This document shows positions 5,546-38,573 of a stretch of 64,000 nt of DNA, piece by piece. This DNA is from Escherichia phage vB_EcoM_3HA14: sequence record MN342151.1. One strand, given 5' to 3'. The notes under the pieces were generated by a model. The model was given only the letters and a program-made list of their open reading frames with translations, was not told the origin of the DNA and did not search any database. The position numbers and the translations under genes were made by a program. Each line of letters starts with the position of its first letter. The first letter of the stretch is position 1.

Positions 5546-5932
5546 GTGTTTATGAAAAAGTTACTTGTTGGTGTCATTGCTATTGGTATGAGTTTTAGTG
5601 CAGCAGCTATGAAGATGCCTGAAGCAAACTTTAATGGTGTCGCTTTAGAATCTTGTAAGATTGTACAGAAAATCGCTTCAAATGCTGGAGAGTTGACTAA
5701 ACCGTTGTCTGCTCAGACTGTTCAAGAAATGACTGATAAGATGGTTGACTACAACTACCATTTTATGGGAGATTACTATGACAGATTAGCAGATGAGATG
5801 GTTACTCAGAACGTTGACCTTCTTGATAGCAAAGGTATTGAGACTGTAGAAGATGTGAAAGACAATTTTATGCGTGAGTCTTTCAAAGGTGTTCAATACT
5901 TTATTGAAAATCGTCACTGCATGGGTTTATAA
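5546..5932 (+). CDS. secreted or periplasmic protein (128 aa)
   Basis: N-terminal signal-peptide-like segment MFMKKLLVGVIAIGMSFSAAA; own promoter and strong RBS. Confidence 0.5.
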   Translation: MFMKKLLVGVIAIGMSFSAAAMKMPEANFNGVALESCKIVQKIASNAGELTKPLSAQTVQEMTDKMVDYNYHFMGDYYDRLADEMVTQNVDLLDSKGIETVEDVKDNFMRESFKGVQYFIENRHCMGL

Positions 5933-19607: not shown

Positions 19608-19608
<1 letters not shown>

Positions 19609-21845
19609 TATTCATCCTCTGGGTAGCTAGAGTTTAACAGAATATCTTCCTGACTCTTATCAGTGATATCCACCATCTTAGTAGCAATCTGCTTACCATC
19701 CAGATTAAAGGAAACGTTAAGCGTCTGCTTAGTTTGCAATGGTAGTCCAGAAGGAGTCATCATCATAGGTGTCTGGTTAAACTTGTTTGCAAAGTTATTT
19801 AGAGACTCAGACAGGTTGTTCATGATAATATCCCAATTTGACAAACCATTATCAACTCTCTGAATATTTCCAGAAGTGTCTGTGGTATATTGTGCAAACT
19901 GAAGTTGTCCATTCTGGTCAAAGAACATTGGACGTTTTGGATTAGTGATTCCTGAGATAGCTTCATTGAAAGGATTAGGTGTGTTAACCTCGTTAAATCT
20001 CTTTCCAGCATTCTTGTCAACTGAACCAGATAACATTAATGCAGAACCACCTACACCAAGAGCCATTCTGGTTGCTGATACACCAGCCGTTGTAGCTGCT
20101 GTTTCTGCTGCTGTAGTTAATCCAAACTTCTGTGCAATCTTAGCTAAGATACCTTCTTCAAAGATACTCTTGACAAATGCTACAGTACCACCAAAGATTT
20201 TAGCGACTTTTGTAATAGCTGCAATTGAGACACCAATAGCGGTGAACGTAGCAACTAACTCAGCAGAATCCTTGATTAGTTTCTGTTGACTAGCATCTAA
20301 TTCCTTGAAATAGCCCATTGAGGTATAGTACAATGAAGAAATGCGGTACATGATATCTGTCACGAAGTCTAGAAGGTTACTAGCACCTTTTAAAAGGTAA
20401 CCAATACCTGTACCAAGTGCTTCAGATGTACCAAGGGAACCTTGCAAGAACATTGCAACTGAGTTAGAGAGTTGTGAAATACCTTCGCTAGAGTTGTTAA
20501 ACAAAGCTACAAGGGTGTTATCCCACATTGCCTTTGCTTGACCCATAGAGGTAGCTGTCTGCTTAGAAACTGCATTCATACCACCTGCTGCTTCAACAAG
20601 CTCTCTCATTTTTTCTGAGACTTTTGGTAGAACGTCTTTTGCAAGAAGCTGACCATCTTTCATCATCTTGTCAAGTTCTTGTGGAGTTTTACCAATAGCA
20701 TCAGAGAATAACTGAACAGCACCTGCCAAACGGTCACCTAACTGTCCACGAAGTTCTTCAGCCTGAATCTTACCTTTAGATGCCATTTGCTGGAAAGCAA
20801 CCATGATACCTTTCAAGTCTTCATCAGAAGCACCACGGATACGTGAGAACATAGCAGCATTCTTATAGAACTCTTGAGTCCCTTTAAAACCTAACTCTGG
20901 TTGAGCACCAGCAGCGAAGTTTGAGTACTGCTTCATAGTGTCTGTGTAGTTCTGACCAATCTGGTGAGAGAACGTAGCAGCGAACATTCTAGCTTGCTGT
21001 GTATCCCCTCCAAAGATAGCTGTTGAGGCTAACTGTGCAGACTGTCTCTTTACACCTGCATCAATAGTCTTCTGAGCTAATTCCAACATAGCATACGCTG
21101 AAACAAAACCACCTACAAGCTGTCTTAGTGAAGAGTTTGCTCTGTCTTGTAACCAAGCTGACTCTCTGACTGCCTTAAGTCTAGCATTTTCTGCAATAAC
21201 CCAACGTTTGGTAGTGTCAATGAGTTTCTTAACTTCCATTTCATACTCACCGACTTTACCACTACCTTTGTACTTATTATAGATTCCTTGTAAGCTTCCT
21301 CTGAAGGAAGTAGCCATTTGGTTACCTTGTCCACCAATTGTTTCAAGACGACGAGTCAAACCAGAATAGAAGTTGTTATTAAACATTCTTTCCATTTGTC
21401 TTTGAGCAATATCAGGTCTAACTCTAGGTGAACCACCACCCCCAACCGGAGGGATAGTGTTACCACGGCCTCTACCAACTCCACCACGAACATTGACTTT
21501 ACCTTCAACATTCATAGCTTGTCTTAGAGCCTTATTAATTTCTTTGGCTGTTTTCTTACCCTGTGTTTCTAATCTACGAAGTGATTTTACACCTTGTGAA
21601 TCTAAATTCATAGCATTGTTTAGGGATTTATTGATTCTGCCTGAAGCAGTCTGAGCGTTTTTTACAAGTCTGTTTAGAGCGTCTTGTGAACTTCTATTAG
21701 GCTTCACATCAAAGGCTTTATTGATATTGCGTTCGATACGTTGAGCAGACTGCATAGCCATTTTCTCAACTCTTTGCAAACCCTTAACAACCTTTTCACT
21801 GAATCCAAGTTCAACAATAAAACTATCAACTGTATATTGTGCCAT
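19608..21845 (-). CDS. tail tape measure protein (745 aa)
   Basis: Long helical A/Q/K-rich protein with Gly-rich segment, directly after the chaperone pair. Confidence 0.7.
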
Positions 21846-22072
21846 TAAATTTTACCTGCTTTTCTGAGTTCGTTGTAAGCCATTTCTTCTTTATATGACT
21901 TCTGGATTTCTAAATACTGACGTAGAGATAATAAATCAACGAAGGTCATATCAAAAAGTTGGTTGAGTGTTTCTTTACACCCATCCATACCATAAATAGC
22001 AAGCACAAATTTCATCTCATCTGCTTCATCATAAGTTGCCTTTACAGCCCCGTCAGTCAGCGGGGTCTGCAT
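21845..22072 (-). CDS. tail assembly chaperone, frameshift-extension (T) segment
   Basis: Lies in the -1 frame relative to the upstream 133-aa ORF; that frame stays open back to a TTTTTTC heptamer inside the upstream ORF. Confidence 0.5.
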   Translation of the reverse strand: MQTPLTDGAVKATYDEADEMKFVLAIYGMDGCKETLNQLFDMTFVDLLSLRQYLEIQKSYKEEMAYNELRKAGKI

Positions 22073-22080
22073 AGAATAAC

Positions 22081-22482
22081 TTAAGCTTCCTGCTGAGAAG
22101 TTAGGCTTTTGAAAATGCTTGCCTCGAAAAAACTTCCGAAGTTTGCCTCCAAAGCAAAAGCTAAGAAGTCAATAAATTCACCGTAGTTCGCTTGGAAGTA
22201 ACTATCAATTTTCAGTGGGAAGTCATTAACTGTTGCCCCCTGAAATAGTGTCTCTGCCATTGCATCAATATCTAGTTCATCAACCTTTTCAAAGCAAGCT
22301 TCAACGAGTTCTTTAAATGGGATTTTAGCTTCCCCATCTTTAGAGGTTAAACCAGAGAACATCTGTGCAAATGCTGGTACAACTGCTTTACCAAGTTTCA
22401 TAGAGATACGAATACCATCTCTTGCTCCAAGAAGAATAATAGTTACCTTCTTGCCGTTAATCATTTTAGTTTCAGTCTTCAT
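22081..22482 (-). CDS. tail assembly chaperone (G-like, 133 aa)
   Basis: Sits between tube and tape measure; contains slippery TTTTTTC heptamer 45 nt before its stop. Confidence 0.55.
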   Translation of the reverse strand: MKTETKMINGKKVTIILLGARDGIRISMKLGKAVVPAFAQMFSGLTSKDGEAKIPFKELVEACFEKVDELDIDAMAETLFQGATVNDFPLKIDSYFQANYGEFIDFLAFALEANFGSFFEASIFKSLTSQQEA

Positions 22483-22512
22483 TGTGATTCCTTAAAAGTT
22501 ATGCTATAAAAA

Positions 22513-22547
22513 CACAAAAGGGGAAGACCTTTTACAGTCTCCCCCTT
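22513..22547 (-). terminator. rho-independent terminator (attenuator candidate) after tail tube gene
   Basis: On - strand: GGGGAGAC ... GTCTTCCCC stem followed by TTTTGTGTT. Confidence 0.5.
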
Positions 22548-22558
22548 ATTAGGATTTG

Positions 22559-23005
22559 TTAAACGCTTGACGCAGGGATTGTTGAAGTGTAGTCTAACTT
22601 CTCACAACCGAAAATCCAAGTTTTCGAGTTCTGGTCACGACCTAATTCAATCTGTGGAAGCTCTTGCAACCAAGCATTAATACCTGTTGCCAGAACTGAA
22701 CCAGATGGGTCGTAAATTACAAAGTTAGATGAGATATCTTCTTCAAGTTCCATGTCATCTTGTTTAGCTTGAATTGCAGAAAGCATCTGGTTTGATAGAG
22801 AAGTCTGCATTAGCTCAATCTCAATCGTACCTGTCTTGTCTGCATTTCTTGTCAGAGCTACTTGACCACCTGCACCTACAACTGGCGTAACAAGTGGAGA
22901 AGTTCTCTGAAGACGCAAGAATGAGTCTGGTGCAAAACCTTCAATGGCAATGCCATTCCAGCTACAAACTACATCTTTAGGGGAATATTGCTGATACATA
23001 GCCAT
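22559..23005 (-). CDS. tail tube protein (148 aa)
   Basis: Small ORF immediately downstream of sheath-sized gene, followed by a terminator and the chaperone pair. Confidence 0.55.
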   Translation of the reverse strand: MAMYQQYSPKDVVCSWNGIAIEGFAPDSFLRLQRTSPLVTPVVGAGGQVALTRNADKTGTIEIELMQTSLSNQMLSAIQAKQDDMELEEDISSNFVIYDPSGSVLATGINAWLQELPQIELGRDQNSKTWIFGCEKLDYTSTIPASSV

Positions 23006-23019
23006 TCCTAATTACTCCT

Positions 23020-24372
23020 TTATTCGTAAGCCACTGTGCCTTTCAAGTCAACATCCAAGATAGCCCCTGCAAGAATACCGTGGAAGGTAACGTCTTTCAG
23101 GATACGTGCTTTCTTATCTGCCAATGCAACTTGTGAGGCTTTAGGAACAGTAACGGTGTAAGTTGACAAAAAGTTTCTGTTAACTGCTCGCTGAAGAGAT
23201 GTTTCAATGACCTGACGAATACGGGTAATACCAGTATCATCATAAGTAATCTTACCACCCTTCTGATTAATTAGCAAGTCTCTCAGAGATGTTTTCAAAT
23301 CAGATTCAAGCCAATCAACACCACGTACAATATCAATCCATTCACCACCAGAAGTGATACCTCTACGCACTACAGGAACCCCACCATCGAGGTCAATGAA
23401 GTTACAGCTACGGGTATCCAAAGCTGACTTCTGAATGCTTGTCAGTGGTCTCTGGTTAGCAGGTTGTAGAGATGCTGCAACACCAGTTAATTGAGCGTTA
23501 CCCCAAGCAATTGAACCTGCATCATATGGAGCACCATATGCGATGTAAGCCATTTCTGGGTAGTCATACTCGGCTGTGTGATGCCACAAGCAAACTGTAC
23601 GAGTGTACTTGCTCTTAGCTAACTGTGCCGGAACATCTGTTGCAGAGGTCAAATCAGTGCCTTGCAGAGCCTTAACGTCAGCATTAGCTGTGAAGAAAAT
23701 CTTCTTACGAGCCTGAATCTCTGAAGCCATTGCCAAGACAAACTGTTGAGTTCTGTCTTCTGCTGAGATGAAGTACCAATCTGTTGAATATGTCTCAATG
23801 GATGCCAGAGCAGCGGAAGCCGTGTCAGCAGTTGTTGCTGCAATAGACGTTGTAGGTGTAATAGATGTTACTTTTACGAAGTCATTATCACCAGCTTTAG
23901 TAATAATCATCGTCGCAGAAGCACCAGTACCTGTTACACTAGCATTAACACCATCTTTAATTGTTGGGCTTGCTTCAATCTGTGATTTAAACTCATTCAA
24001 GACAATAAGTGCTGTGTCGTTTTCTTTTGCAGTGTACTGGAATGGCTGAGAAACACCACCACCGATAGCAACTGTCAATGAATATTCACTTCCTTCAGCC
24101 ACTGTGTCAGGAATAGAAACAGTATATTGCATAGTTCTTCTACCAATATACAGTTGAGTTACTTTTGGAGTTTGGCTCCATAGCTGTTTTGCAGCTTTAT
24201 ACGCAGCAGTACTTTCATCAAAGTCTTCAGCTACTTCTGTTAATGAAGTATAACCACGGATTCTTTCTTCAAAGTTATCTGTTGAAGCAAGGAATAATGG
24301 TAAACCAAAACCTTCTCTTGTAGTTCCTGCTGTGTTCAATGTAATATCTACATTAACAATTGGATTCCACAT
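23020..24372 (-). CDS. tail sheath protein (450 aa)
   Basis: Size and position upstream of tube, chaperones and tape measure indicate a contractile tail. Confidence 0.6.
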   Translation of the reverse strand: MWNPIVNVDITLNTAGTTREGFGLPLFLASTDNFEERIRGYTSLTEVAEDFDESTAAYKAAKQLWSQTPKVTQLYIGRRTMQYTVSIPDTVAEGSEYSLTVAIGGGVSQPFQYTAKENDTALIVLNEFKSQIEASPTIKDGVNASVTGTGASATMIITKAGDNDFVKVTSITPTTSIAATTADTASAALASIETYSTDWYFISAEDRTQQFVLAMASEIQARKKIFFTANADVKALQGTDLTSATDVPAQLAKSKYTRTVCLWHHTAEYDYPEMAYIAYGAPYDAGSIAWGNAQLTGVAASLQPANQRPLTSIQKSALDTRSCNFIDLDGGVPVVRRGITSGGEWIDIVRGVDWLESDLKTSLRDLLINQKGGKITYDDTGITRIRQVIETSLQRAVNRNFLSTYTVTVPKASQVALADKKARILKDVTFHGILAGAILDVDLKGTVAYE

Positions 24373-33541: not shown

Positions 33542-33617
33542 TGGAGTATCGGAAGGGACTCGAACCCTCATAAACCTGTTTTGCAGACAGGCACATAACC
33601 ATTTCTGACACCGACAC
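33542..33617 (-). tRNA. tRNA-Cys (GCA)
   Basis: Manual fold: acceptor GTGTCGG/CCGATAC, anticodon arm CCTGT-CTGCAAA-ACAGG, T-arm GAGGG-TTCGAGT-CCCTT, CCA encoded. Confidence 0.75.
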
Positions 33618-33623
33618 ATAATT

Positions 33624-33716
33624 TGGAGGAAGATACCAGACTTGAACTGGTACGCCGATTTCTCGGTTACTGGCAGTTTAGCAAACTGCTCCCTTACCTT
33701 TTAGGGTTAATCTTCC
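33624..33716 (-). tRNA. tRNA-Ser (GCT), long variable arm
   Basis: 93 nt; acceptor GGAAGAT/ATCTTCC perfect; anticodon loop TTGCTAA; long variable arm; T-loop TTCAAGT. Confidence 0.75.
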
Positions 33717-33717
33717 A

Positions 33718-34452
33718 TTATTTGTTCAGAGCTTCTTTCATCTCTGGAGTTGCGATAGTATCAATCACACCAGTTTTACATGAATCATCAAACCAGCTTG
33801 GTAGAACATTCGCAAGGAAACCATTAATATTTGTTTTCAGATATTCTGCAATCAGTGCTGCTTCATCTGCAATCATCTGAGTTACTTCGTTAGCATATGC
33901 AGTAATCTTTGCAATACCCTCATTAATCGCTGTAACGGCCTGTGTAGCGAGTTCAGAGATTGTATCTAGTCCTTGGTCGATTGCATCTTGCAAATCGCTT
34001 AGAACGCCATTTACAGCGTCTATGGAGGTATTAATCAAATCCATCGCTTTATTACCGTACTCGGTAGCTACGCCCATGATACCGCTAAACGGTGTACATC
34101 CAACCTGTTCACCTGCTGCTCCCATAACGTTAGAGTAACCTTTAGCTACTTGCATACGTTGTGAAAACTCATCTACAGACTTTTGTCCATACTCAGTAAG
34201 TGTACTTGTCGTTGAAGTTGTACTTCCAAGGCTTGTTGTGAAGCTTCCTAATAAGGCTGTTGTCAGTCCAGCAGCAACTAAAATCTGTTGTGTAGCTGGG
34301 TCTGTTACAGAACTAATTGAGTTAACTAATGATTGAGAGGCAGCTATAGTACCACCAAGAACTGCTGCACCAGTAATAAGAGGGTTTGAAAAACCATTAC
34401 CAGTTTTAAGGAGATTAAAAATCTCTTTACTTTGTTCTGTCATCTCTTTCAT
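33718..34452 (-). CDS. hypothetical Ala/Thr/Ser-rich protein (244 aa) within tRNA cluster
   Basis: ORF-track start (GTG at 34515) would run through a tRNA-Phe; ATG at 34452 has a GGTG RBS and avoids the tRNA. Confidence 0.5.
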   Translation of the reverse strand: MKEMTEQSKEIFNLLKTGNGFSNPLITGAAVLGGTIAASQSLVNSISSVTDPATQQILVAAGLTTALLGSFTTSLGSTTSTTSTLTEYGQKSVDEFSQRMQVAKGYSNVMGAAGEQVGCTPFSGIMGVATEYGNKAMDLINTSIDAVNGVLSDLQDAIDQGLDTISELATQAVTAINEGIAKITAYANEVTQMIADEAALIAEYLKTNINGFLANVLPSWFDDSCKTGVIDTIATPEMKEALNK

Positions 34453-34468
34453 TATGCACCTATAAAGT

Positions 34469-34545
34469 TGGTAGCCCATCGGGATTTGAACCCTGTTCTC
34501 ATGTTTTTCAGACACGCGCTTTAACCATATAAGCTAATTGAGCTA
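34469..34545 (-). tRNA. tRNA-Phe (GAA), atypical acceptor/D spacing
   Basis: Anticodon arm CGTGT-CTGAAAA-ACATG; D-arm GCTT-ATATGGTTA-AAGC; T-loop TTCAAAT; acceptor pairs only with a 1-2 nt offset and T-stem is weak. Confidence 0.55.
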
Positions 34546-34551
34546 TTAAAT

Positions 34552-34628
34552 TGGGGTGACCTACGGGAATCGAACCCGTATAGACCATGTTCACAGCATG
34601 GGTCATTATCCATTTATGATAAGGCCAC
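34552..34628 (-). tRNA. tRNA-His (GTG)
   Basis: Anticodon arm CCATG-CTGTGAA-CATGG; D-arm TCAT/ATGA; acceptor GTGGCCT/AGGTCAC; CCA encoded. Confidence 0.75.
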
Positions 34629-34659
34629 ATTTAAGGACTCTCGTAAGAATCCTTAGAAG

Positions 34660-34735
34660 TGGCAGCAGTATAAGGATTTGAACCTTAATCTTTCAGCTTC
34701 AGAGGCTGGAGCATTGCCAGTTATGCTATACTGCT
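34660..34735 (-). tRNA. tRNA-Gln (CTG)
   Basis: 76 nt; anticodon loop CTCTGAA; D-arm GCAT/ATGC; acceptor AGCAGTA/TACTGCT perfect. Confidence 0.7.
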
Positions 34736-34741
34736 AATATT

Positions 34742-34820
34742 TGGTACTCCATATCGGATTCGAACCGATACATAACACAGATTTTAAATCTGGCCTCTCT
34801 GCCAATTGGAGTAATGGAGC
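34742..34820 (-). tRNA. tRNA with Leu anticodon (TAA) but short variable arm
   Basis: Anticodon loop TTTAAAA; D-loop AATTGGCAGAG (Leu-like); variable region about 7 nt; discriminator A; T-arm ATCGG-TTCGAAT-CCGAT. Confidence 0.6.
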
Positions 34821-34822
34821 AT

Positions 34823-34898
34823 TGGCGGGGGATGATGGAATTGAACCATCTTCTTCGATTTCAAAGACCGAGGTTTTAACCTTGTAAACTAATCCCCT
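34823..34898 (-). tRNA. tRNA-Gln (TTG)
   Basis: Anticodon arm TCGGT-CTTTGAA-ATCGA; D-arm GTTT/AAAC; position 1:72 mismatched. Confidence 0.65.
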
Positions 34899-35124
34899 AA
34901 CGAACTCTTGAAAGAATATATGCGTTATTGCAAGTATCCTTATTTTCAGGTAGTGATGTTTCGAAGATAACTTGCTTAAGTTCTAATCCAGCAAAGTTAT
35001 AAACAACCTTTCTAACTTCTAACGGGTCACATTGCCAACCAACCGCTATAAAGAAAGTATCTCCAAATCTACCTGTTTCAATCTTGTGGTCATCTTTATG
35101 TTTTTCAACTATGAGTTTATACAT
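34897..35124 (-). CDS. hypothetical protein (75 aa) between tRNA genes
   Basis: ORF fills the gap between two tRNAs. Confidence 0.35.
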   Translation of the reverse strand: MYKLIVEKHKDDHKIETGRFGDTFFIAVGWQCDPLEVRKVVYNFAGLELKQVIFETSLPENKDTCNNAYILSRVR

Positions 35125-35142
35125 AATGTTACCTATTAAATT

Positions 35143-35219
35143 TGGTGCAGAATAGAGGATTCGAACCCCTAACTAACAACTTCGTAGGTTGCTGCTCTGT
35201 CCATTTGAACTAATTCTGC
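35143..35219 (-). tRNA. tRNA-Arg (ACG)
   Basis: Acceptor GCAGAAT/ATTCTGC perfect; anticodon arm GCAAC-CTACGAA-GTTGT. Confidence 0.75.
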
Positions 35220-35381
35220 AATATCCTTTTGAGATTCCTGTCTAGCTCTCTTCTTATCTCTTCTGAGAAAGCGTTTACGATGGTCTGTACGCCATTTGTA
35301 ATAATCTTCTTCACCATCATGCGCTGCACAGCAGCCACAACTTGCAATTTCAACTTTACCATGTCTACCATAAGGCTTCAT
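35169..35381 (-). CDS. hypothetical Cys-rich basic protein (70 aa)
   Basis: ORF whose 3' 51 nt overlap tRNA-Arg; CxC plus basic KRxRR-like segment. May be real or chance. Confidence 0.3.
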   Translation of the reverse strand: MKPYGRHGKVEIASCGCCAAHDGEEDYYKWRTDHRKRFLRRDKKRARQESQKDIAELVQMDRAATYEVVS

Positions 35382-35397
35382 AGGAATCTCCTAAAAT

Positions 35398-35475
35398 TGG
35401 TGTTCCAAGACGGATTCGAACCGTCACTAATACAAGGTTTGAGCTTGCATCCTCTGCCAATTGGGATACTGGAAC
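35398..35475 (-). tRNA. tRNA with Leu anticodon (CAA) but short variable arm
   Basis: Anticodon arm GCAAG-CTCAAAC-CTTGT; D-loop AATTGGCAGAG; variable region about 6 nt; discriminator A. Confidence 0.6.
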
Positions 35476-35476
35476 T

Positions 35477-35551
35477 TGGTACTCGCTGAAGGACTTGAAC
35501 CTTCTTCACCAACTTGTAAGGATGGGGCTTTACCATATAAACTAAGCGAGC
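35477..35551 (-). tRNA. tRNA-Val (TAC)
   Basis: Anticodon loop CTTACAA; T-arm GAAGG-TTCAAGT-CCTTC; separated by 1 nt from the neighbouring tRNA. Confidence 0.7.
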
Positions 35552-35646
35552 TTTGAAGAGGTCTGAAGCTGTGCCGCTAACTCAACTCCGTGGAATTTGT
35601 TACGGTCTTCAGTTGACTCAAGCGGTCTTTCACTTGACCTCAAAAT

Positions 35647-35723
35647 TGGTGCTGCTCACAGGACTCGAACCTGCATCTCCATCCTTACAAGGGATGTGCA
35701 ATAGCCAATTATACGAAAGCAGC
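35647..35723 (-). tRNA. tRNA-Thr (TGT)
   Basis: Anticodon arm CATCC-CTTGTAA-GGATG perfect; T-loop TTCGAGT. Confidence 0.75.
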
Positions 35724-35729
35724 ATTATT

Positions 35730-35804
35730 TGGAGCATCCAGAGGGAATCGAACCCTCAACCTCAGTTTGGAAGACTGTAATTTTCCCATTTAAACTATGG
35801 ATGC
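35730..35804 (-). tRNA. tRNA-Gly (TCC)
   Basis: Acceptor GCATCCA/TGGATGC perfect; anticodon loop CTTCCAA. Confidence 0.75.
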
Positions 35805-35810
35805 ACTAAT

Positions 35811-35886
35811 TGGTGGAGAAGCAGGGAATTGAACCCTGTACTTAAGTTTGCAAAACTTATGTTTTAACCATGTAAACTACATCCCC
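35811..35886 (-). tRNA. tRNA-Ala (TGC)
   Basis: Anticodon arm TAAGT-TTTGCAA-ACTTA perfect; D-arm GTTT/AAAC; G3:U70 wobble (Ala identity element) present. Confidence 0.8.
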
Positions 35887-35892
35887 ATTGTT

Positions 35893-35968
35893 TGGTACAG
35901 GTGGAGGGAATTGAACCCATCGTCTTACTGATTAAGAGTCAGCCGCATAACCATTTTGCTACACCTGC
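35893..35968 (-). tRNA. tRNA-Lys (CTT)
   Basis: Anticodon arm GCTGA-CTCTTAA-TCAGT; T-stem only 3 bp (GGG/CCC). Confidence 0.6.
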
Positions 35969-35975
35969 ATTAATT

Positions 35976-36052
35976 TGGTACACCTAGAGAGATTCGAACT
36001 CACACTGAGCAGATTCTAAGTCTGCTGCCTCTTCCAATTGGGCTATAGGTGC
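35976..36052 (-). tRNA. tRNA with Leu anticodon (TAG) but short variable arm
   Basis: 77 nt; anticodon arm GCAGA-CTTAGAA-TCTGC perfect; D-loop AATTGGAAGAG; 5-nt variable loop; discriminator A. Confidence 0.65.
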
Positions 36053-36305
36053 ATTAAATCTTTGTAGAGAACTGCTAAGACGCCAAAGCAACAATGGTAT
36101 CAAATGCCTTAACAATTCTCTAAAAAGACCTATTGGCCTCTGCATAGTCTTGCTTAATCCGGTGACTAGAACCTTTGGAGAGCTTGATACTATCTCTTCT
36201 CCGTGACACCTACTAGGTGCTTTACCAGTGCCGTGTACGCCAATACACGAAGAGGAAACCTGAAACACTTGCTCGAACAAATAGTCTCAGCTTTAAATCT
36301 TATTA

Positions 36306-36395
36306 GGCGGTAGATAAAGGAGTCGAACCCTCACCGTATCTCTACAATGGCAACTGTTTTCAAGACAGTTTGGCTTCCATTAGCCGCTACCTACC
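36306..36395 (-). tRNA. tRNA-Ser (TGA), long variable arm
   Basis: About 90 nt; anticodon arm ACTGT-CTTGAAA-ACAGT; long variable arm; 3' CC encoded but not the terminal A. Confidence 0.7.
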
Positions 36396-36408
36396 CCTAA
36401 TAAGACTT

Positions 36409-36491
36409 TGGCATGGGACGGAGGATTCGAACCCCTTTGAGTAAGTTTTGGAGGCTTACGCACATGCCTTAGTGTCTTAACATCGTCCCAT
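36409..36491 (-). tRNA. atypical tRNA-like gene, possibly tRNA-Trp (CCA)
   Basis: Perfect 7-bp acceptor ATGGGAC/GTCCCAT and T-arm. Anticodon stem GTAAG/CTTAC encloses a 9-nt loop CCTCCAAAA (CCA anticodon if the closing pair is unpaired); D region about 8 nt longer than canonical. Confidence 0.5.
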
Positions 36492-36656
36492 ACTATATTT
36501 CGAAGCTTACCCTGTTATCTCAACACTGTCAAGCTTCTTCTCAGATTATTTACATGTTCTGGAAAACATGAGATACAGACCACCTCCTTATGAGATTGAC
36601 TCTTTCAAGTCAATGCGGAGACCCATAAAGGTCGTCATAGTAATCTGCTAACTAAT

Positions 36657-36724
36657 TGGCAGTCAAGGTAGGAGTCGAACCTACTTACTATTAAAGGGAG
36701 CTACCCTTCAGCAACTATCCGACT
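36657..36724 (-). tRNA. tRNA-like element (truncated or non-canonical)
   Basis: Canonical T-arm GTAGG-TTCGACT-CCTAC and CCA end, but only about 68 nt to the best acceptor match; no convincing anticodon arm. Confidence 0.35.
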
Positions 36725-36785
36725 TTCGTTTATCTCTTAACGCGTATCCAAGATAACTTACTCGTGTTGTCTTGACCATTAAAAT

Positions 36786-36862
36786 TGGCACACCCTACAG
36801 GATTCGAACCTGTAACTGACGGTTTAGAAGACCGTTGCTCTATCCGTTTGAACTAAGGGTGC
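36786..36862 (-). tRNA. tRNA-Arg (TCT)
   Basis: Anticodon arm ACGGT-CTTCTAA-ACCGT perfect; T-arm ACAGG-TTCGAAT-CCTGT. Confidence 0.75.
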
Positions 36863-37066
36863 ATTATCTTTAAAGGCTCTCTTAGAAAACCCTTAAAGAT
36901 GCCCACTTTATTAATCATACCGTGGGCTAGTACGCCAAATTCTTTAACAGGGAGTTGGAATACCCTGCTGGTGTTTAGCCTATTAAGCTACTGCCAGAAA
37001 AACATTATCGTTTGCATTTATTTTTAAGTTTTTAAAATAGACGCTACGCTAACGAAAACTAAGGTT

Positions 37067-37095
37067 ATCTTAAAGTGGTCACATCTAAATGTCAA
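37067..37095 (-). promoter_or_regulatory. possible internal sigma70-like promoter in tRNA cluster spacer
   Basis: On - strand: TTGACA (37090-37095), 17-nt spacer, TAAGAT (37067-37072). Confidence 0.3.
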
Positions 37096-37109
37096 CAACT
37101 TTATGAAAT

Positions 37110-37187
37110 TGGTTGTAGGTGAGGGTATCGAACCCTCTTCTAACGGTTATCAGCCGTTTGCATTACCATTTATGCTAACCCACAATT
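37110..37187 (-). tRNA. tRNA-Ile (GAT)
   Basis: Anticodon arm AACGG-CTGATAA-CCGTT perfect; D-arm GCAT/ATGC. Confidence 0.75.
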
Positions 37188-37189
37188 GG

Positions 37190-37266
37190 AGGTTCAGGTG
37201 GGAATCGAACCCACATTCATAGGGCTTATGAAACCCTTGCATTACCTTATCTGCGACTGAACCATT
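37190..37266 (-). tRNA. tRNA-Met (CAT), elongator-like
   Basis: Acceptor GGTTCAG/CTGAACC perfect; anticodon arm AGGGT-TTCATAA-GCCCT; 1:72 paired, so not initiator-like. Confidence 0.7.
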
Positions 37267-37344
37267 ATAAGTTGCCCCTTTGTAGAGAACTGATTGAGTG
37301 GGTGTTTCCAGCCGCGCATGTGTTCTTCAGTTAAGGGGCGAATT

Positions 37345-37421
37345 TGGTAGAAGTGGAGGGATTCGAACCCGTCGCCTGTCAGATTAAAAGTCTGCCGCAT
37401 CACCATTCTGCTACACTTCCA
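37345..37421 (-). tRNA. tRNA-Lys (TTT)
   Basis: Anticodon region GCAGA-CTTTTAA-TCTGA; weak T-stem like the CTT isoacceptor. Confidence 0.65.
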
Positions 37422-37606
37422 TTAAATCATCTTTGCAGTAACCTACGCAAACCTTGCTAAAGGGTTTGTAGAGTCATCTCTTATAAGCTAATCTAGAATC
37501 ATGCTCAAGAGACTCTTCGGCACTCATGGGACGACTGGTTAGCTCCATAAGTCACTGCAAAGAGGATTACCAGACCGTATTTATCTTAAGTGCTTCCATT
37601 ACACCA

Positions 37607-37643
37607 ACACGCCGTAACGTGTGAAGGAATCGAACCTTCGCCT
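37607..37643 (-). ncRNA. orphan T-arm-like hairpin with adjacent stem-loop (tRNA-like module without acceptor or anticodon)
   Basis: Sense strand GAAGG-TTCGATT-CCTTC followed by ACACG-TTACGG-CGTGT; no pairing acceptor found within 100 nt. Confidence 0.3.
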
Positions 37644-37844
37644 TTTCTTTACCAGAGAAATAGATTGTTTATTGTTTGCTGTAAACGGTCTTCTGTAAAA
37701 TTGTTGGAACCAGACCAAGTTTTAAATTTTTCAAATTAAATTGGCTTGAAATATTAAAATTGCTTGCTGTATTTGGTCTTCTGCTCCTTTAAAGAATACT
37801 CGTAAGAACTCTTTAAGGGAGGGGCTAAAAAGCCCTCTCAAATT

Positions 37845-37921
37845 TGGCGGTTACGAAGGGATTCGAACCCTCATCATCCTCCGTGACAGGGAGGTATTTT
37901 GACCAGTTAAACTACATAACC
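37845..37921 (-). tRNA. tRNA-Asp (GTC)
   Basis: Anticodon arm CCTCC-CTGTCAC-GGAGG perfect; T-arm GAGGG-TTCGAAT-CCCTT. Confidence 0.75.
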
Positions 37922-37927
37922 TTTATT

Positions 37928-38015
37928 TGGTGCGCCGTGAAGGAGTCGAACCTCCCGAGTCATAATGACAAGTGATTTACAGTCACCACCGCTTCCATCT
38001 ACGGGATAACGACGC
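37928..38015 (-). tRNA. tRNA-Tyr (GTA), long variable arm
   Basis: 88 nt; anticodon arm GGTGA-CTGTAAA-TCACT; variable-arm hairpin TGTCA..TGACT. Confidence 0.7.
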
Positions 38016-38083
38016 ATTTTATTCTATTCAGGCTAAGGACTTGCACCTTACAAATCGGTGAGCAATCGCTTCTCTCCCAAATC

Positions 38084-38161
38084 TTGGCGGTTAGTCAGGG
38101 ATTCGAACCCTGTACCATTCGGTTAACAGCCGACCGCACATGCCTTATGTGCTTCCTAACC
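38084..38161 (-). tRNA. tRNA-Asn (GTT)
   Basis: Anticodon loop CTGTTAA; D-arm GCAC/GTGC; T-arm CAGGG-TTCGAAT-CCCTG. Confidence 0.7.
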
Positions 38162-38245
38162 ATGTTAGTATTACCAGACCGTATCTTTTCATTTTTTGCC
38201 TATAAAAAATTTTAAGTGTTTGCTGTAAACGGCCTTCTGTAAATT

Positions 38246-38322
38246 TGGAGGCGGGTGTAGGAGTCGAACCTACCGATAACATGCTAATGAGACATGTGAG
38301 ACACCCTTTCTCTATACCCGCA
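38246..38322 (-). tRNA. tRNA with CAT anticodon (Met or Ile2), 1:72 mismatch
   Basis: Anticodon arm CATGT-CTCATTA-GCATG; first acceptor pair unpaired (T:C). Confidence 0.6.
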
Positions 38323-38409
38323 ATTCTTAATGACCAGACCAAATCTTTTTTGGATTTCTATGCGCGAAATTGAAAAGTTTGTTTGCTGTAATTGGTCTTC
38401 TGTCAAAAC

Positions 38410-38487
38410 TGGCATTCCCGAAGGGACTTGAACCCTCAAACCACACCTTGAAAGGGTGTTGACTTTACCTAATTTGTCTACGGGAAT
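38410..38487 (-). tRNA. tRNA-Glu (TTC)
   Basis: Acceptor ATTCCCG/CGGGAAT perfect; anticodon arm ACACC-CTTTCAA-GGTGT perfect. Confidence 0.75.
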
Positions 38488-38493
38488 ATAATT

Positions 38494-38573
38494 TGGTCTC
38501 CGTTGAAGGATTTGAACCTTCGACCCCTTGCTCCCAAAGCAAGTGCTGCTAAACCAAACTGAGCTAAACGGAG
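38494..38573 (-). tRNA. tRNA-Pro (TGG)
   Basis: Acceptor CTCCGTT/AACGGAG perfect; anticodon arm CTTGC-TTTGGGA-GCAAG perfect. Confidence 0.75.

Follow-up and report, generated by a model that had tools for sequence, protein, structure and literature searches.

A predicted -1 ribosomal frameshift of the lambda G/GT type in the tail assembly chaperone locus of Escherichia phage vB_EcoM_3HA14

Analysis of the tail gene region in a 64,000-nucleotide (nt) stretch of Escherichia phage vB_EcoM_3HA14 (MN342151.1; here called the window) revealed two consecutive open reading frames (ORFs) on the minus strand which together appear to encode a short and a long tail assembly chaperone. The first of them, ORF1 (22081..22482, minus strand), gives under standard decoding a protein of 133 amino acids (aa) plus stop, the putative short tail assembly chaperone (TAC-N, the analogue of lambda gpG). 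Near its 3' end it contains the heptamer T_TTT_TTC (22126..22132, minus strand), the proposed site of a tandem -1 slip. The second, ORF2, was listed by the gene caller as a separate frame of 75 aa plus stop (21845..22072, minus strand) with an ATG at 22072. The two frames are very probably connected by ribosomal tandem -1 slippage of two tRNA-Phe(GAA) on U_UUU_UUC, which would yield a minor gpGT-like isoform beside the major gpG-like one. The phage belongs to the genus Mooglevirus (Ounavirinae, Andersonviridae) and is a Felix O1-like myophage. The frameshift is an ordinary device of the lambda G/GT type, and its annotation and publication for Mooglevirus predate this analysis.

Inspection of the reading frames confirmed the slippery heptamer that the initial annotation had proposed within the 133-aa ORF. 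Codons 117 to 119 of ORF1 read AGT TTT TTC, which places the heptamer in the X_XXY_YYZ register that is correct for a tandem -1 slip, with tRNA-Phe(GAA) expected in both the P and the A site. The distance of 45 nt that had been given between the heptamer and the ORF1 stop holds when it is counted through the end of the stop codon, whereas the interval from the heptamer up to the first base of the stop measures 42 nt (14 codons). ORF2 is located in the -1 frame of ORF1, because (22482-22072) mod 3 = 2. The -1 frame was found to be free of stop codons from approximately position 22165 to the TAA at 21847..21845; no stop codon occurs between the heptamer and ORF2, and the frame is open through the whole 75-aa ORF, as had been claimed. 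The -1 extension after a slip (21845..22126, minus strand) would comprise an 18-codon linker, RGKHFQKPNFSAGSLSYS, followed by the 75-aa T-like domain and the TAA. From the heptamer to the ORF1 stop (22084..22125, minus strand), the two frames overlap, and this segment is predicted to encode protein in the 0 frame as well as in the -1 frame. The predicted fusion protein (TAC-NC, the analogue of gpGT) consists of ORF1 residues 1 to 119, the linker, and the 75 residues of ORF2, 212 aa in total. Its predicted tryptic junction reads ...EANFGSFFR, followed by GK and then by HFQKPNFSAGSLSYSMQTPLTDGAVK.

The arrangement was compared with that of other in-register X_XXY_YYZ heptamers (Y = A or T), taken from both strands of the window within ORFs of 100 aa or more. 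The -1 extension was mostly a few codons long among these heptamers (n = 30) and exceeded 25 codons in just 2 of them (93 and 69 codons). The 93-codon extension belongs to the chaperone heptamer and ends exactly at the start of the tape measure gene. This result indicates that the combination of the heptamer with an open -1 frame exceeds chance.

The deduced ORF1 protein matched the Pfam family PF21822 (Phage_TAC_15) with an E value of 7.5e-20 and a score of 72.2 bits (gathering cutoff, 22), and it also matched PHROG 1613, "tail assembly chaperone" (1.8e-48). On the basis of these family matches, ORF1 is a tail assembly chaperone. The ORF2 product matched PHROG 4963, which carries the same description, "tail assembly chaperone" (2.4e-51), and its T-like domain gave no family match in Pfam or NCBIfam. 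Sequence and profile searches of the Protein Data Bank matched no solved structure, and a single-sequence AlphaFold model of ORF1 (predicted local distance difference test score, 46.6) was too poor for fold comparison.

To follow the locus across relatives, a set of 41 related loci from IMG/VR and from GenBank phages was used, of which 40 are full-length with the window counted in. The set includes Felixounavirus, the Erwinia phages (Kolesnikvirus), Pectobacterium phage Wc4-1, and Alteromonas phage PT11-V22. An in-register heptamer close to the 3' end of ORF1 is found in all 40 full-length loci, at ORF1 identities ranging from 100% to 34%; the heptamer reads TTTTTTC in 39 of them and TTTTTTT in the Alteromonas phage. 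The -1 frame is likewise open to approximately the start of the tape measure gene in 40 of 40. Codons 117 to 119 were identical (100%) across 36 distinct sequences, with no synonymous variation. Synonymous-codon identity, determined over 9 codons at a time, amounted to 0.93 to 0.96 at codons 118 to 128, compared to approximately 0.6 to 0.85 over most of ORF1. In the Erwinia-phage lineage, in which the ORF1 protein is 45% identical, the heptamer and the following 25 nt or so are almost invariant, and the sequence just upstream has freely diverged. The linker in the -1 frame, RSKHFQKP, is conserved at the protein level.

A joined coding sequence (CDS) is annotated at this locus in phages Moogle, Mijalis, Michonne, and Mushroom. 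The GenBank records of Mijalis (a Citrobacter phage) and Mushroom (a Salmonella phage) contain a two-piece joined CDS, "tape measure chaperone," that covers exactly this segment. Moogle, Mijalis, and Michonne (Mooglevirus) and Mushroom (Felixounavirus) share the locus, the heptamer, and the junction with the window, and the window ORF1 is 97% identical to that of Moogle; comparison of the Moogle-type frameshift with the window revealed no substantive difference. Reconstruction of the fusion proteins from the heptamer reproduced the deposited sequences. The Mijalis and Moogle reconstructions (212 aa) were identical residue for residue to the deposited entries (AIW03804.1, ARB06563.1, and YP_009145710.1), and the Mushroom reconstruction (213 aa) was exactly that of AJF40599.1. 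The 212-aa Michonne chaperone falls in the same protein cluster. For the window's own 212-aa fusion, no identical entry was present in the protein collection searched. A -1 translational frameshift is stated in the genome announcements of Moogle, Michonne, and Mijalis (PMC4319497, PMC4591319, and PMC5543628), and a 2025 comparison that cites the Moogle annotation described a conserved GTTTTT motif in 231 Andersonviridae genomes (PMC12846349). In the records nearest to the window (ESh20, Sf14, Henu11, and KMM2; ON528730.1, MF327003.1, and others), two separate or hypothetical proteins are given with no joined CDS. The annotation thus differs within one genus, a joined CDS in some records versus two proteins in others. 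The value for annotation is that the closest records (ESh20, Sf14, Henu11, and others) should give the joined CDS plus the short form.

More distant myophages show comparable arrangements. In Alteromonas phage vB_AmeM_PT11-V22 (MN877442.1; locus L038, positions 1839 to 2144), the heptamer is T_TTT_TTT, and the -1 frame runs through the "hypothetical" ORF14 to the start of the tape measure gene. No frameshift is annotated in the record of this phage (MN877442.1), and none is mentioned in the V22 paper. Pseudomonas phage PAK_P5 (NC_022966.1; locus L039, positions 1740 to 2035), a distant homologue, has G_GTT_TTT at the equivalent Phe and its ORF2 in the -1 frame. G_GTT_TTT fits the GTTTTT motif reported for Vandenendeviridae (PMC12846349). 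It is an imperfect X_XXY_YYZ heptamer, whereas that of the window is fully canonical. TAC-N/TAC-NC of the Pakpunavirus phage Adele and of other Vandenendeviridae are distant homologues of ORF1 (approximately 25 to 27% identity by tblastn) and, like the window, have the motif (GTTTTT) close to the 3' end, with the -1 frame uninterrupted (PMC12846349). The slip site is retained throughout the Ounavirinae and into Alteromonas and Pseudomonas myophages.

According to the proposed mechanism, most ribosomes would read ORF1 to its TAA and produce the 133-aa short chaperone, the gpG analogue. In a minority of ribosomes, the tRNA-Phe on UUU in the P site and that on UUC in the A site would slip back by one base and re-pair on UUU_UUU. 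Translation of the 18-codon linker and the 75-codon ORF in the -1 frame by the slipped ribosomes would then produce the 212-aa long isoform, the gpGT analogue. The ratio of the short to the long isoform would be fixed by a single slip frequency. By analogy with lambda, the N-terminal part common to both isoforms may serve to coat the tape measure protein, and the T-like domain at the C terminus may recruit the tube protein.

The lambda gpG/gpGT system resembles the window in that two overlapping ORFs separate the major tail or tube gene from the tape measure gene and that no strong 3' structure is evident. The two differ in that lambda is a siphovirus whereas the window phage is a myovirus, and the window chaperones have no detectable sequence similarity to lambda gpG or gpT. 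The heptamers also differ, with U_UUU_UUC in the window and G_GGA_AAG at the lambda slip site. Gene position, chaperone family, heptamer, open shifted frame, conservation, and an unconserved second start (see below) are all those of a G/GT-type locus. The locus can be considered one more conservation-supported case of the near-universal G/GT frameshift in long-tailed phages.

Several points weigh against ribosomal slippage at this locus. No stable or conserved RNA structure was found at a spacing of 5 to 9 nt 3' of the heptamer. For any Ounavirinae phage, no experimental detection of the fusion was found in the literature searched. The same protein would also arise if transcription added one base to the T6 run. 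Finally, the window ORF2 has an ATG 8 nt past the ORF1 stop, from which some independent or re-initiated translation might occur.

With respect to the first of these points, folding of the sequence 3' of the heptamer gave z = -0.07 for the next 50 nt and z = -1.18 for the next 86 nt, the consensus fold of this segment from 10 lineages amounted to -0.57 kcal/mol, and an Rfam scan matched no frameshift element. The downstream stimulatory structure for which the initial annotation had suggested a search was thus not found within approximately 50 nt by folding, 10-lineage consensus, or Rfam, and the 3' structure is the part of a canonical three-part signal for -1 programmed ribosomal frameshifting (PRF) that the window lacks. 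The missing structure does not weigh against a frameshift, because U_UU.U_UU.C shifts unstimulated and lambda needs a shift of only approximately 1 in 30. In Escherichia coli, U_UU.U_UU.C, which belongs to the efficient H_HH.U_UU.Y class, gave more than 0.1% shifting without stimulators (PMC4066793). The ratio of gpG to gpGT in lambda is approximately 30:1 (Levin et al. 1993; Xu, Hendrix and Duda 2004, 2013, 2014, summarised in PMC5009743).

The identical protein could be obtained if RNA polymerase added one U in the U6 run, so that a minority mRNA encoded the same 212-aa fusion. The inserted U would give AGU UUU UUU CGA and with it the identical G-S-F-F-R junction, and a T-run is common to all lineages (T6 in general, T7 in the Alteromonas phage, and T5 in PAK_P5). 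However, productive cases of transcriptional slippage in bacteria have been described at runs of approximately 9 A or T (PMC5009743), whereas the run here comprises 5 to 7 and is expanded in no lineage. Moreover, ribosomal shifting at U_UU.U_UU.C has been measured in E. coli (PMC4066793), and a rare GGAGG located upstream of the heptamer at the spacing of a Shine-Dalgarno (SD) stimulator (described below) suits a ribosomal mechanism. Slippage of the polymerase is thus considered an unlikely origin of the fusion.

The two frames could also be independent genes, in which case ORF2 would have its own translation start at the ATG at 22072, perhaps through termination-reinitiation, and the heptamer would merely encode Ser-Phe-Phe. 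An in-frame ORF2 ATG is present in Mooglevirus, another ATG is located just past the ORF1 stop in Felixounavirus, and two separate CDSs are annotated in many genomes (Sf14, mistaenkt, and Felix O1). The start codon, however, is not conserved. The position of the window ORF2 ATG reads CTA in Felixounavirus, the ATG just past the ORF1 stop there being a different one, and the Felix-like genome L025 has neither of the two. No ATG, GTG, or TTG is found ahead of the conserved T domain in loci L025, L031, L032, L033, L037, and L038, and the lineages lacking such a start are those of the Erwinia phages, the Pectobacterium phage, L032, and the Alteromonas phage. The 18 nt before the window ORF2 ATG contain no SD-like motif, and none of the candidate ORF2 starts has an SD sequence. 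In addition, the UG of the window AUG is paired in a hairpin of -15.9 kcal/mol, protein-level conservation in the -1 frame extends over the 18 codons that precede the ATG, and the heptamer codons show no synonymous variation. The frozen overlap, the conserved linker, and the unconserved ORF2 start together indicate that the T-like domain would be reached by ribosomes coming from ORF1. ORF2 is therefore probably the C-terminal part of the fusion and not an independent gene, and separate expression of two genes is very unlikely to account for the locus. The same features, together with the chaperone families and the conserved heptamer, support at the sequence level the G-T-type fusion product that the initial annotation had put forward.

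The explanation that a homopolymer error during sequencing split one chaperone gene into two ORFs can practically be dismissed, since the T6 homopolymer at the junction is a classic site of indel errors but the T6, the ORF1 stop, and the -1 arrangement are found again in dozens of genomes that belong to several genera and were sequenced independently.

For ribosomal slippage at the heptamer, the only mildly new points concern candidate accessory elements, namely, the GGAGG upstream (a candidate stimulator) and a conserved hairpin at the stop junction. The internal SD-like GGAGG (22146..22150, minus strand) lies 13 nt 5' of the heptamer and may act as a 5' stimulator. The minus strand of the 64 kb contains 16 copies of GGAGG, and the copy at 22146-22150 is not followed by a start codon. 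E. coli dnaX and insertion sequence (IS) elements combine a heptamer with an internal SD-like sequence 9 to 14 nt upstream. In contrast to the window, where no 3' stem-loop was found, dnaX also needs such a structure. Approximately 50% of ribosomes shift at dnaX. Internal SD sequences have been reported to stimulate -1 frameshifting from 9 to 14 nt upstream (PMC5009743). The Mooglevirus, Felixounavirus, and Pectobacterium phage Wc4-1 lineages retain the GGAGG, which reads GGAG in one Suspvirus-labelled relative. It appears not to be essential to the family, because it is missing from the Erwinia-phage lineage; it is also missing from L032.

The hairpin, UGCAGACCCCGCUGACUGACGGGGCUGUA (22043..22071, minus strand), is located at the junction of the ORF1 stop and the T domain, where it pairs the UG of the ORF2 AUG. 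Its stability corresponds to z = -3.5, and 0 of 200 shuffled sequences were as stable. The Mooglevirus and Felixounavirus lineages have this hairpin, and those of the Erwinia phages and the Pectobacterium phage lack it. Analysis of covariation revealed 3 pairs changed on both sides, and 88.5% of the cells were paired, compared to 28 to 55% when the partners were slid. As a canonical PRF stimulator the hairpin was rejected, because it starts approximately 54 nt 3' of the heptamer. Its start lies roughly where a ribosome that terminates at the ORF1 stop would have its leading edge, and the hairpin might influence termination or prevent independent initiation at ORF2.

The window also contains an array of 26 tRNA genes (33542-38573, minus strand), which includes a tRNA-Phe(GAA) gene at 34469-34544. 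The phage may thus supply its own shifty tRNA, because this tRNA-Phe(GAA) would decode both codons of the slip site. It is conceivable, although doubtful, that in Mooglevirus and Felixounavirus the frameshift frequency is set by the GGAGG together with the hairpin occluding the ORF2 AUG, in the absence of a proximal 3' structure, and that the phage's own tRNA-Phe(GAA) adds to it. If this were true, it would represent an SD-plus-distal-hairpin variant of the G/GT signal, which is undescribed for phage tail chaperones.

Other slip motifs were observed in the window. A weaker one, the tetramer U_UUC, occurs in AT[T TTC] at codons 123 and 124 of ORF1 (22111-22114, minus strand), inside the overlap that is open in the -1 frame. 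In E. coli, U_UU.C was the second-ranked tetramer in the study of Sharma et al. (PMC4066793). A slip at this tetramer would yield ...EASIF-QKPNF..., compared to ...GSFF-RGKHFQKPNF... for a slip at the heptamer. The 69-codon extension mentioned above belongs to a second candidate, G_GGT_TTA followed by TAA (5923-5932, plus strand), which was rejected. It ends a 128-aa ORF (PHROG 4332), and the next ORF, of 67 aa (PHROG 4473), is in the -1 frame. This arrangement is probably due to chance, because the motif is not conserved in the Suspvirus relative EcSzw-2, which has AGGTCTA TGA instead, and because both ORFs have PHROG families of their own.

The 4.8-kb stretch around the chaperone locus is 99.7% identical to that of Shigella phage ESh20 and 99.3% identical to that of Sf14. 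The order of genes on the minus strand is sheath, tube-like protein, ORF1, ORF2, and tape measure protein. The tail sheath gene (24372..23020, minus strand) was assigned by PHROG 205 and DUF3383. The gene for a tail tube-like structural protein of the KPP10_Orf10 type (22559..23005, minus strand; Pfam PF11681, 5.3e-07; PHROG 280) adjoins the chaperone gene upstream, and the homologue of this protein in Erwinia phage Omen carries a tail tube protein annotation. ORF1 and ORF2 are separated by 8 nt between the TAA of the former and the ATG of the latter. The tape measure protein gene (19608..21845, minus strand) encodes 745 aa and matched Pfam PF20155 (TMP_3; 2.8e-16) and PHROG 4036. Its ATG overlaps the TAA of ORF2 in the sequence TAATG, with base 21845 common to both. 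The Pfam and PHROG matches of these flanking genes bear out the earlier placement of the chaperone pair between the tube and tape measure genes.

Between the tube and chaperone genes, a hairpin resembling an intrinsic terminator was found (22508..22547, minus strand), consisting of a 12-pair stem followed by the T-run TTGTGTTTTT. A terminator is annotated at the same position between the tube and chaperone genes in Citrobacter phage Mijalis. This terminator-like hairpin may cause the chaperone and tape measure genes to be transcribed less than the sheath and tube genes.

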